Below are positions 38,262 through 41,580 of a DNA stretch of 44,743 nucleotides, one piece after another. Both the position numbers and the translations under genes were made by a program. The stretch spans positions 1 through 44,743 of the forward strand of contig JAHPZI010000004.1 of the NCBI GenBank assembly GCA_019058295.1. Direction: 5' to 3'. Each line of letters begins with the position of its first letter. The stretch's first letter is position 1. The notes below the pieces were generated by a model. The model ran no database searches, was not told the origin of the DNA, and saw only the letters and a program-made list of their open reading frames with translations. The DNA comes from Promethearchaeota archaeon. GTDB taxonomy: Archaea > Asgardarchaeota > Lokiarchaeia > Sigyniarchaeales > SOKP01.

Positions 38262-38369
38262 TTAATTCTTTTTTCTTTTAACTTTATAGTTAAGAATAAT
38301 GAAATTAAAATAATAATTTTTTTGAAGTTAAATGTAGAAATTAATTAAAGTCTATAAAGAAAAATAAAA

Positions 38370-38557
38370 TGGTCCCCTCTCCCGGCCTCGTTCCGCCGTC
38401 GTTCCGTTTTGGACCGACGCATCCGGGGGCCGCTCGGTTTTTGCTGGCTGACGTAACTTCATAGGTACAAAACCTTAGTACGCGATTTCATCTACAGCCG
38501 AGCGCTCTACCAGTCTGAGCTTACCTCTTTAAAGGGTATCCCTTTAAATAAGAGGGG
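38370..38557 (-). tRNA. trnY: tRNA-Tyr(GTA) with three introns: 8/9 (38522-38549), 37/38 (38439-38491), 55/56 (38391-38420); CCA encoded
   Basis: Spliced product CCCCTCT-TA-GCTC-AGACTGGTA-GAGC-G-CTCGG-CTGTAGA-CCGAG-CGGCC-CCCGG-ATCGAGG-CCGGG-AGAGGGG-A-CCA. All four stems pair perfectly. C1:G72/A73 is the archaeal/eukaryotic Tyr identity. BHB-like motifs are present at all three junctions. Confidence 0.92.
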
Positions 38558-38599
38558 CTATTTATAGAGGGGCTTTTTTATAATTATCTAGTTCTTTAA

Positions 38600-38607
38600 T
38601 TTATATA
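38600..38607 (-). promoter_or_regulatory. Putative TATA box of the tRNA-Tyr gene
   Basis: TATATAAA on the minus strand, preceded by an A-rich stretch, about 43 nt upstream of C1. The AT-rich context lowers confidence. Confidence 0.45.
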
Positions 38608-38785
38608 TTTTTTACGATTTTAAGCAAGAATCAATGAAGTGTAAAAAAAAATCTTTTTTTAAATAGTTTTTTGGTAATAAAAAAATGAAAAATTAGTATA
38701 ATTTATGAATTCCAAACCTTTTTATAAAATTATTAAAATCTTTTTATTAAATTATAAAAATATTTATATTTGAGATGATAGAAAT

Positions 38786-39295
38786 TTGCGTGAAGAAAAT
38801 GACTATGGGGACGCCATAGAGACATATAAAAATGATGAATATGTTATTATTGAACCATGGGGTCGAAGTATAGATCATTTACGATTAACTATTATCGGTA
38901 AAAAAGGAACCCCCTATGCTGATGGAAAATTTGTATTCGAAATTAAGTTCCCAGAAAATTATCCCTTCGCACCTCCATATGCCTATGCTGTAACTCTTAT
39001 GTGGCATCCTAACATTGATTCTAGTATCCCACCTGGCAAACTTAACATTTGTTTGGACTTAATTAATCCCGATCTCGTAGGTAAAGTTGATGCGAGTACT
39101 GGTGCATCAGGTTGGACACCATCAAAAACTTTAATTAATATTATTGAGGCTCTCAAGGGGATGATGCATTATGAAGCTCCATTTTTCAACCCTGGAGATC
39201 CACTGAATCACGAAGCAGGAGAAGAATATTTTAGGAATCTAAAGAAGTTTGAATCTAAAGCAAAAAAATGGACTCAAAAGTACGCAATGGATTAA
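38786..39295 (+). CDS. Ubiquitin-conjugating enzyme E2 (UBC fold)
   Basis: GTPYADG.F, FPENYPFAPP, WHPNI, catalytic Cys in NICLDLI, WTPS, PLNHEA and AKKWTQKYA. Confidence 0.95.
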   Translation: MREENDYGDAIETYKNDEYVIIEPWGRSIDHLRLTIIGKKGTPYADGKFVFEIKFPENYPFAPPYAYAVTLMWHPNIDSSIPPGKLNICLDLINPDLVGKVDASTGASGWTPSKTLINIIEALKGMMHYEAPFFNPGDPLNHEAGEEYFRNLKKFESKAKKWTQKYAMD

Positions 39296-39395: not shown

Positions 39396-40004
39396 ATGAT
39401 CTCTTTTAAAAAAAAAAAAGTAATTATATTTGACTTAGATGGAACTATTGTAAGGTTACCTGTTAATTGGGATCATTTAAAGAAACTTTTAACCAAAAGA
39501 TATAATGATGTTTATGGTGAAACTTGTGAATTTGTACATATTACTGCTTGCCTCGATCAGGTTGTAGATAAAGATGATGAAGCAGAATTACAGAATTTTT
39601 TTAATATGCTTGAAGACTACGAGATGAAAACGATAAAAGACAATGAAACTATTAAAGAAACCATTTTTTTTATTAAGAATATACACATGTTTAAAGTCCC
39701 TAATGATATTAAATTAGCAGTATTATCCTTAAACACAAGAAAAACGATTATTGGATCTTTAAAATTAGCAGGAATTTATGAAAAGATAGATCATATTATA
39801 GGAAGAGAGGATGTGAGAAAGTGGAAACCAAATCCAGAAGGATTGTTAAAAATTCGAGATCATTATGGGGTTAAAAAAGAAGAAATAATATATATCGGAG
39901 ATCTCGAAAAAGATGTAATAACTGGTAAAAATGCTGGAATCGAGGCTTATTTAATCGATGAAATAATTAATCTTGTTAATAAAAAGAAAGTAGAAACTAC
40001 ATAA
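39396..40004 (+). CDS. HAD-superfamily phosphatase
   Basis: IFDLDGT, LSLN, KPNPEG and IGDLEKD motifs I-IV. Confidence 0.92.
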   Translation: MISFKKKKVIIFDLDGTIVRLPVNWDHLKKLLTKRYNDVYGETCEFVHITACLDQVVDKDDEAELQNFFNMLEDYEMKTIKDNETIKETIFFIKNIHMFKVPNDIKLAVLSLNTRKTIIGSLKLAGIYEKIDHIIGREDVRKWKPNPEGLLKIRDHYGVKKEEIIYIGDLEKDVITGKNAGIEAYLIDEIINLVNKKKVETT

Positions 40005-41580
40005 ACGTAATTATCACATTATATTTTTTAATTTCCGATGCTTCTTTTGCCTTTCCTAAGGGTGTTATAGAAACAATGTCATTACTTTTAATTTTAAGAG
40101 AATTTAGCTTAATTTTTGGGTCTTTCATTGACGGAATATATGGATTCCAATAAATTTCTTTACTCATAGGATTGGTGATCATCCATAAATCTGGTTCTAA
40201 TTTATGTTCACTAATTTCCATAGCCTCAAAGATATAACCCAAATCTGCATCAAAAGGAACCACAATACGGACATTTTCTTCACCCTCAATTGTGCCGCAC
40301 GCAAGACATTCCTCTCGCTTTGTTATGTCCAGGGCATCAAATTGACCATAAACACCATTATAATTAATATAAGGAGGATCCATCGGAGGGCCAATATTTC
40401 TACCATTCACTCGGAACAATAATTTTAAAGCTTCTTGGGATTCAATACTAGAAATAATGGAACTAACTGTTTGAACTGCAGCAATTTTATTTCCTAATAT
40501 GTTTTCCATTTCTTCAAATTTATAATCCGATCCGAAAGTTTCTTTTATATTATTTTTCCACTCTTGAATTTCTTCTGGTGTCAAAGATTCTCTCTTTTCT
40601 GGTGGTACATTTTCATTAAAAACTCGTTCTCTTAATTTTCTTAATTCTTCTTGAGCTAATTCTTTTAATTTTAATACCTCATCATCGATGTTCAAATCTG
40701 GTTTATGATCATATTTTTTTTCAAATTCTACCTCAGCCTTGATAACGCAATGATTTCGATTTCTTGGCAACCCCTTTAATGTACAAGCTGCTATCAATTT
40801 ATCATCAGCAGGAATAACGGGTACTAAGCATCTATAACAAGGCGTTTGGTCTAATAAATTAGAACTATATTTTTCATCAAATTCAGTTTCAATTCGTTCT
40901 CTTATCCTTTCTTTAACAGGTTCTATTTTTTCCTGTCTTATTTGATAGATTTTTTCTTCTAACTCTTCTATTTCTCTTTCAGCTTTAAAATATTCAGGAT
41001 AATCATCTTCGTTAATAGACCATAATTCTGATTCAACTAATTTATCGATTTCAATTTTTCTGTTTTTATATTGGATTCCTGCTCCTTCGGGAATGACAAT
41101 TTGAACATGACCCTCAAATCCTACAGTTCCTCCCTCAACTATAGGTTTTTTTAACCTTAGGCAGATTTTATTTAAATCTAGTCTAGCGTTGAAATTATCT
41201 AATGCCATAACGACAACATCTGCTTCTTCATAAACGGACATTGGCAATTTCTGAAGTTTCTCAAAATAAAAATCAATATTTATAAAGGGATTCATCTCTT
41301 TCAGCCTCTCTGCGGCAACTTCTGCCTTTGGTCGACCTTCATCTCCAGGTCTAAATAGCATTTGACGAGAGAGGTTTGAAGTTTCTATAGTATCTAAATC
41401 AACTAAGATCAACTTACCTATACCCATTAATGCGAAGTCCTTAGCAATTTCGCAACCAAGTGCTCCGACTCCCACTATCATTATACAACCATTATTAACG
41501 ACATCTTGGTCCCAACCGTCAATTAACTGCTGCCTAGCAAACATCCTAGATTTGAAAATTTCATTCTTTTCAGTAGTCAT
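39997..41580 (-). CDS. Ubiquitin-like-activating enzyme E1 (Uba2/Uba3-like)
   Basis: GVGALG, DLDTIETSNLSRQ and LDNFNAR adenylation motifs; Zn ligands CYRC and CLAC; catalytic-Cys motif CTLKGLPRNRNHC; probable C-terminal ubiquitin-fold domain. Confidence 0.92.
   Translation of the reverse strand: MTTEKNEIFKSRMFARQQLIDGWDQDVVNNGCIMIVGVGALGCEIAKDFALMGIGKLILVDLDTIETSNLSRQMLFRPGDEGRPKAEVAAERLKEMNPFINIDFYFEKLQKLPMSVYEEADVVVMALDNFNARLDLNKICLRLKKPIVEGGTVGFEGHVQIVIPEGAGIQYKNRKIEIDKLVESELWSINEDDYPEYFKAEREIEELEEKIYQIRQEKIEPVKERIRERIETEFDEKYSSNLLDQTPCYRCLVPVIPADDKLIAACTLKGLPRNRNHCVIKAEVEFEKKYDHKPDLNIDDEVLKLKELAQEELRKLRERVFNENVPPEKRESLTPEEIQEWKNNIKETFGSDYKFEEMENILGNKIAAVQTVSSIISSIESQEALKLLFRVNGRNIGPPMDPPYINYNGVYGQFDALDITKREECLACGTIEGEENVRIVVPFDADLGYIFEAMEISEHKLEPDLWMITNPMSKEIYWNPYIPSMKDPKIKLNSLKIKSNDIVSITPLGKAKEASEIKKYNVIITFM

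Follow-up and report, generated by a model that had tools for sequence, protein, structure and literature searches.

A Lokiarchaeota-type tRNA-Tyr gene with three introns and a duplicate of the 5' acceptor strand in its leader

Introduction

How can an intron persist in a tRNA gene if forming its splice motif means competing with the most stable tRNA helix? The question is raised by a pre-tRNA-Tyr(GUA) gene on the minus strand of the window (the whole 44,743-nt stretch of DNA that was analysed), which runs from 38557 to 38370 and carries introns of 28 nt at 8/9, 53 nt at 37/38 and 30 nt at 55/56. A short duplicate of the 5' acceptor strand in the leader of this gene suggests a testable answer, and the answer bears on what limits the placement of tRNA introns in the closest prokaryotic relatives of eukaryotes.

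In Asgard archaea 92–95% of tRNA genes are interrupted, and a three-intron tRNA-Tyr is listed for Atabeyarchaeia (PMC11291895); Asgard tRNA genes carry up to five inserts each (Goswami et al. 2026 preprint, 10.64898/2026.10.13.758758). A first, sequence-only reading of the locus had named the Thermoproteales as the group in which three-intron tRNAs are best described, a placing that gives way to these published Asgard cases and to the observation below that such genes are routine for tRNA-Tyr in this family. The three-intron tRNA-Tyr itself is an ordinary member of the published Asgard phenomenon, with which it shares several non-canonical introns per gene, frequent omission by annotators and repeated lineage-specific gains. 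The published studies concern Atabeyarchaeia, Freyarchaeia and Jordiarchaeia, whereas the genome described here is Lokiarchaeota/Promethearchaeota-like, and the gene adds a case of that type to the heavily interrupted Asgard tRNA genes. Its first intron lies at a rarely described junction, and the stand-in strand in its leader is, as far as we found in the literature, unpublished.

Results

Anatomy of the tRNA-Tyr gene

Read along the minus strand, the gene begins with an 8-nt exon 1 (38550–38557) holding tRNA positions 1–8, that is, the acceptor 5' strand and U8. Intron 1 follows (28 nt, 38522–38549), then a 30-nt exon 2 (38492–38521) covering positions 9–37 with the D arm, the 5' strand of the anticodon stem and the anticodon GUA. 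Intron 2 (53 nt, 38439–38491) occupies the canonical 37/38 site and was placed by ARAGORN after removal of introns 1 and 3. An 18-nt exon 3 (positions 38–55; 38421–38438) leads to intron 3 (30 nt, 38391–38420) at 55/56 in the T loop, and the 21-nt exon 4 (38370–38390) supplies positions 56–76: the 3' part of the T loop, the T stem, AGAGGGG, A73 and an encoded CCA. Transcription in archaea terminates at oligo-T, and a T-rich run immediately 3' of the CCA (38360–38369, minus strand) can be read from the sequence as a likely stop. Upstream of the gene, at −61 to −41 relative to the tRNA, lies a promoter-like BRE/TATA block, ATCGTAAAAAATATATAAATT (38598–38618, minus strand).

Once spliced, the gene yields a 77-mer that ARAGORN calls as tRNA-Tyr(gta) and that scores 29 out of 29.5 with a custom cloverleaf scorer. 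All 21 of its 21 stem pairs are Watson-Crick, and U8, A14, GG, U33, U55, C56 and A58 are all in the spliced sequence. It has the anticodon GUA, C1-G72, A73 and a short (class I) variable loop, as an archaeal-type tRNA-Tyr does; C1-G72 together with A73 marks tyrosine identity in archaea. G+C content is 69% in the exons, against 30% for the genome. We note that tRNA position 54 (window 38422), normally U, is A; all four bases occur at this position among the orthologues, whereas U55, C56 and A58 are constant.

The unspliced window tells annotation programs little about this gene. ARAGORN, with and without its intron option, and Rfam at gathering scores both missed the tRNA, in line with the expectation voiced from the sequence that standard scanners might do so; in this way scanners can lose a decoder entirely. 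A permissive Rfam scan (E≤10) gave a 9-bit match to HgcG at the locus, which we set aside as a chance match. The three introns, with the coordinates and lengths first proposed for them, were recovered when the gene was read back from the minus strand, and they agree with the ARAGORN call and with the orthologue junctions described below; the fully paired cloverleaf ending in ACCA that had been predicted on excision is borne out by the same call and by the stem pairing. When the BHB-like candidates of the region were combined two by two, only the combination in this gene model yielded a tRNA, and this, together with the uninterrupted junctions in orthologues, indicates that the gene model is not the product of chance.

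Splice motifs of the three introns

Candidate motifs were judged against a BHB geometry consisting of an outer helix, a 4-bp central helix, 3-nt bulges and an inner helix, with the cuts falling after the second base of each bulge. In intron 1 the central helix is complete (4/4), formed by CCUC of tRNA positions 3–6 with GAGG; the bulges are UU|a and ua|A, and the inner hairpin has 9 bp. The outer helix is a single base pair, which assigns the motif to the relaxed HBh' class, and apart from that 1-bp outer helix it is nearly ideal. The sequence-only reading had described a near-ideal BHB here with a 9-bp outer hairpin; its central helix, bulges and 8/9 cut stand, but the hairpin is the inner one. 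Since the first base of intron 1 and base 9 are both A, the spliced product alone would also permit 9/10; 8/9 is the sole cut for intron 1 that fits a BHB.

The other two motifs are relaxed as well. Intron 2 has three of four central pairs and a 5-bp outer helix, which is the intact anticodon stem. Intron 3 also has three of four central pairs, with a G.G mismatch, and a 5-bp inner helix, cgucg/cgacg; this helix was noticed from the sequence and is present, although it is inner rather than outer in BHB terms and the central helix beside it is incomplete. Motif geometry, the cloverleaf restored on excision and insert-free junctions in orthologues all agree with archaeal BHB tRNA introns.

Orthologues and intron history

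A DNA search of 40 related genomes recovered tRNA-Tyr orthologues in 19 of them. All were read, several by eye where the automatic 37/38 boundaries were doubtful. The one in G007 is 98% identical over the searched stretch and has all three introns. Intron 1 is missing from the 16 scored orthologues outside the host genome (G000) and G007, and exon 1 is joined directly to exon 2 in orthologues L003 and L008; the G017 gene is uninterrupted at 8/9, and the G019 gene at both 8/9 and 55/56. Across the latter junction G019 reads GGATCGAGGCC, with the T loop AUCGAGG, and because it runs uninterrupted through this loop it fixes the boundaries of the 55/56 intron and indicates that A54 is genuine in the clade.

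The 37/38 intron is common to every tRNA-Tyr orthologue. Further introns occur in other orthologues near 22/23, 43–46 or 59/60 (D arm, variable region and T loop), and two orthologues have three introns in other combinations, so that two or three introns are routine for the tRNA-Tyr of this family. Within the gene, G000 and G007 differ at two positions, both in intron 1 at the tip of the hairpin; a metagenome contig spanning the whole gene differs from G000 at four, in introns 1 and 3, those in intron 1 again being at the hairpin tip. The exons are identical in G000, G007 and the metagenome strain.

The orthologue junctions thus argue that the gene is real and that the 37/38 intron is ancestral to the family. 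By the same comparison of sequences, the lineage of G000 and its close relative G007 has gained the 8/9 and 55/56 introns recently. Given the cloverleaf, the motifs and these junctions, we regard it as very likely that the gene is real and spliced.

Leader copies accompany introns next to the acceptor stem

The leader of the tRNA-Tyr gene contains CCCCTCT (38566–38572, minus strand), a perfect copy of tRNA positions 1–7 located 8 nt upstream of base 1. By composition, the chance of such a copy is about 1e-4 for the 35-nt Tyr leader and at most 1e-4 per leader overall. A SPLITS-like census of G000, combining BHB enumeration with ARAGORN, recovered about 20 host tRNAs; it is a sample and not an inventory, and includes some spurious introns beyond position 72. 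In this genome all three tRNAs whose intron uses the acceptor 5' strand have a leader copy: Tyr (8/9), Val (9/10) and Cys (10/11), the 8/9 site being one of this local group. The tRNA-Val(GAC) gene (C14:94509–94613; L028) has a 29-nt intron at 9/10 and the copy GGGCGTG 6 nt upstream. The tRNA-Cys(GCA) gene (C28:121772–121880; L029) has a 30-nt intron at 10/11, and its copy, GCCAGC, abuts the gene. In G003 and G001 the Cys intron seemingly lies at 9/10; its sequence is not that of the G000 intron, and a spacer separates the copy from the gene.

Intron and copy occur together among the relatives. For Tyr 8/9 the copy is present in both genomes with the intron (G000 and G007) and in none of the 16 scored orthologues without it; the corresponding figures are three of three versus none of about 20 for Val, and eight of eight (three genera, three spacings, differing introns) versus none of 14 for Cys, although related genomes are not independent and these counts represent about three to six independent events rather than thirteen. 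The Val locus of G007 has neither intron nor copy, even though this genome is near-identical to G000 at the Tyr and Cys loci, and further relatives in metagenome contigs likewise have neither. Three genera retain the Cys copy, even though its spacing (0, 3 or 5 nt) varies and so do the intron sequence and the flanks, and a C-to-U change in the Val copy still pairs with the 3' strand as G.U.

The leading alternative to a role in splicing is that the copy is a neutral scar of intron arrival, left by target or partial tandem duplication as a mobile intron-like element inserted. A single insertion would likewise make intron and copy come and go together. The geometry of a target-site duplication, however, is not seen: the two copies flank an 8-nt spacer rather than the intron, which lies downstream of both. 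A neutral 6–9-mer should decay, yet the Cys copy persists over three genera, and the Val variant keeps its pairing. The duplicate is moreover limited to exactly the acceptor-strand bases, and the abstract of the 2026 census reports that neither mobile elements nor copying emerged as a general route for Asgard tRNA introns (10.64898/2026.10.13.758758). We consider a neutral scar unlikely.

The conservation and the folding results below suggest instead that the stand-in strand in the leader is probably functional, and we lean towards a role for it as a splicing helper. By a narrower margin we favour the wider proposal that archaeal introns borrowing the 5' acceptor strand (about 3/4 to 10/11) depend on a leader-encoded cis placeholder, with the gains of intron and placeholder coupled and with splicing preceding RNase P. 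If true, such placeholders would form a class of RNA-folding helper not described before in tRNA maturation and would limit where tRNA introns can settle. For annotation, a duplicate of bases 1–7 in a leader would be a simple signature of introns concealed close to the 5' end.

A leader duplicate of another sort was seen at the tRNA-Val gene of G014 (C77; L039), where a copy of about 16 nt of its own anticodon-arm sequence, ACGTCCGCTTGACGTG, lies about 30 nt upstream of the gene.

Predicted folding and transcription of the leader

In ViennaRNA ensembles with the native leader, the central helix of the intron 1 motif has P=0.96, and pairing between the leader copy and the 3' acceptor strand has P=0.99. 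When the leader is removed, or its copy scrambled or replaced by A/T, the central helix falls to P=0.00. Forcing the intron 1 BHB costs 0.7 kcal/mol with the copy and 7.6 kcal/mol without it in two-dimensional folding. The same comparison gives 2.0 versus 4.7/7.9 kcal/mol for Val and 2.4 versus 3.6/4.5 kcal/mol for Cys. The costs for introns 3 and 2 of the tRNA-Tyr are 1.9 and 3.6–3.9 kcal/mol, respectively, whatever the leader. The BHBs of introns 2 and 3 have P of only about 0.01–0.02 in the same model, so folding alone does not predict what EndA can cut, and we take these results as supportive and not decisive.

The promoter-like block is kept upstream of the tRNA-Tyr orthologues, at distances of about 19 to 48 nt. 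The archaeal TATA box is centred about 26 nt before the start site, and its placement here would set the Tyr start near −22, just before the copy, so that the copy would be transcribed. At Cys and Val, a start set by the nearest TATA-like runs would fall downstream of the copy; the copy would be transcribed there only if a conserved block farther away is the promoter.

We propose the following course of events. The bases of positions 3–6 that the central helix of intron 1 needs are also claimed by the 7-bp, G+C-rich acceptor stem. In a precursor of about 210 nt, CCCCUCU near the start of the leader would pair with the 3' acceptor strand as a stand-in, and the real 5' strand, thereby freed, would pair with intron 1 and present the BHB. 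EndA would remove the three introns at their BHB motifs, with the exons ligated presumably by RtcB. Upon excision of the intron the real acceptor stem could form, and RNase P would remove the leader together with its copy. We infer from sequence and folding that the introns are spliced, that the steps take this order and that the copy acts as a helper; the order implied is splicing and then 5' maturation. In the two-dimensional model the copy remains a competitor of the real acceptor stem in the spliced RNA (P 0.14–0.96), and the choice of the correct RNase P site is left unexplained by the model.

An intronless tRNA array and the remaining alternatives

Whether the three-intron gene is the only tRNA-Tyr, a point raised at the outset, is answered in the negative. 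Contig C22 of G000 carries 27 tRNA genes in a tight array, none with an intron, for nearly all amino acids (C22:30303–33335; L023:9804–12836), among them a second tRNA-Tyr(GUA), intronless and with C1-G72 and A73, at C22:32669–32743. The array tRNAs are 44–61% G+C, against about 65–69% for host tRNAs. The array is syntenic in G005 (91%) and in G003, G009 and G024 (about 70%). G007, at 99% completeness, keeps the three-intron gene, but neither the array nor an array-type tRNA-Tyr was detected there. By Pfam the flanks hold housekeeping genes and a single DNA methylase, and nothing clearly of viral or plasmid type; they also code for a 655-aa protein without a Pfam match. One possibility is that the array represents a set of accessory or mobile tRNAs in a lineage with heavily interrupted tRNA genes.

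With a second, intronless tRNA-Tyr in the assembly, the three-intron gene need not be essential in G000. One could go further and regard it as a decaying or redundant pseudogene in which inserts 1 and 3 stay in while the intact C22 gene does the decoding, and the imperfect BHB motifs of introns 2 and 3 would fit such a state. We find this improbable, as the exons show no defect: their stem pairing is complete, all conserved bases are present except at the clade-variable position 54, and they are identical in G007 and the metagenome strain while the introns differ. The situation in G007, with the three-intron gene and no array-type tRNA-Tyr detected, also argues against decay, and the array, patchy among relatives and lower in G+C, looks itself like the accessory set.

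Very hard to credit is a reading in which the upstream copy is the mature 5' end, and the 8-nt spacer and proximal copy leave within a larger first intron that is then not at 8/9. That copy does pair perfectly with the 3' strand, and sequence alone cannot distinguish two identical 7-mers. The base after the upstream copy, however, is A, where the near-universal U8 would be expected; if positions 8–13 are to read UA and GCUC as they do in the orthologues, their U has to be taken from the proximal copy. Enumeration found no 15-nt or 43-nt alternative that has a BHB-like motif at its bounds and gives back a cloverleaf, and in tRNA-Cys the same arrangement would leave a 6-nt insert without a motif.

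The preferred reading is that of a functional tRNA-Tyr(GUA) gene of an Asgard archaeon of Lokiarchaeota/Promethearchaeota type, whose three introns would be spliced out, the first with the help of the stand-in strand. Taken whole, we consider this explanation likely.

Splicing enzymes and genomic context

The G000 assembly encodes two EndA paralogues of 201 aa each (PF01974/PF02778), one with HS at the presumed catalytic His and the other with DSAKY. The pair fits alpha and beta subunits, presumably assembling as (alpha-beta)2. Asgard EndA has been described as (alpha-beta)2 with a broad-specificity L1 loop (PMC5829648). The EndA protein has its best named relatives among Promethearchaeota and Lokiarchaeota MAGs. 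No match to RtcB (PF01139) was found in the G000 assembly, which is 79% complete; RtcB is found in the relatives G007, G006, G016 and G022, and we therefore attribute its absence to the incompleteness of the assembly. In G006 (C13:33313–34649) the RtcB match breaks at profile position 47, leaving two pieces with 26 nt between them, and this could reflect a short BHB-type insert within the protein-coding gene.

The tRNA-Tyr gene is flanked by genes for a GFO/IDH/MocA oxidoreductase and an E2 ubiquitin-conjugating enzyme. The E2 gene beside the tRNA (38786–39295, plus strand) is followed two genes on by one for an E1-like ThiF protein (39997–41580, minus strand), with a HAD hydrolase between them. 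This neighbourhood fits an Asgard host, a eukaryote-like ubiquitin system being typical there.

A second interrupted tRNA lies near the start of the window, at about 199–331 on the plus strand. ARAGORN with its intron option calls it tRNA-Glu with one odd intron, and a BHB-based parse reads it as tRNA-Trp(CCA) with two introns, one of 32 nt near 23/24 and one of 29 nt at 37/38.

Comparison with known systems

Neither an 8/9 intron nor a leader copy is described in PMC11291895 or in the 2026 census (10.64898/2026.10.13.758758). In the coordinates that Supplementary Data 4 of PMC11291895 gives for one of the three genomes, no insert starts 8 nt into a gene, and hand-added introns are given there without coordinates. 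The 2026 census files 'acceptor stem and junctions' under 'other' and does not mention leaders (10.64898/2026.10.13.758758). A review names the positions 3/4, 20/21, 22/23, 25/26, 29/30, 30/31, 45/46, 53/54, 56/57, 59/60 and 'etc.', with 8/9 absent (PMC4090602). An 8/9 tRNA intron, which had been thought possibly new, is named in none of the literature surveyed, the main intron catalogues (SPLITSdb, GtRNAdb, Sugahara) lying outside that survey.

The nearest parallel for an intron that borrows the acceptor stem is in the Thermoproteales, whose multi-intron tRNAs include an acceptor-stem intron at 3/4 (Sugahara et al. 2008, as relayed in PMC4090602). They are also like the present gene in up to three introns per tRNA, relaxed BHBs and a broad-specificity heterotetrameric EndA (PMC4090602). 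They belong, however, to a different phylum, and no leader helper strand was found reported for them in the literature surveyed.

Split and permuted tRNAs (Nanoarchaeum equitans, Caldivirga and Cyanidioschyzon; PMC4033280, PMC3978253) are alike in that a discarded flank pairs so that a BHB forms. In those genes the flanks pair together and join pieces, whereas here there is one colinear transcript, whose leader repeats a mature strand; the repeat would occupy the 3' acceptor strand as a placeholder. We rejected membership of this class for the tRNA-Tyr gene, which is single and colinear and whose leader element is not the complement of another flank.

The conserved core of intron 2

Intron 2 is about 80% conserved in the 19 orthologues, with compensatory changes in its helix. 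Its core (about 38483–38443, minus strand; orthologues L002–L020) consists of a covarying helix with a K-turn-like internal loop at about 38483–38451, in which YU(G/A)A lies opposite RAUGA and which is closed by a short GG/CC hairpin. This core looks like an L7Ae-binding element.

Clouet d'Orval and colleagues reportedly described, in 2001, a box C/D guide RNA within the pre-tRNA-Trp intron of Euryarchaeota. The tRNA-Tyr intron 2 resembles that intron in being long, conserved and canonically placed and in having a K-turn-forming pair (D'-like and C'-like), but it has no conserved terminal C and D boxes, and the likeness is one of resemblance only. A box C/D guide RNA in intron 2 was rejected, as only the internal K-turn-like D'/C' pair is conserved: a 5' GAUGA occurs in only a few orthologues, the 3' end has no CUGA, and searches of intron 2 gave neither guide complementarity to the tRNA exons nor an Rfam match. 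We note that CAGCC, 3' of the K-turn-like core of intron 2, is complementary to tRNA positions 30–34.
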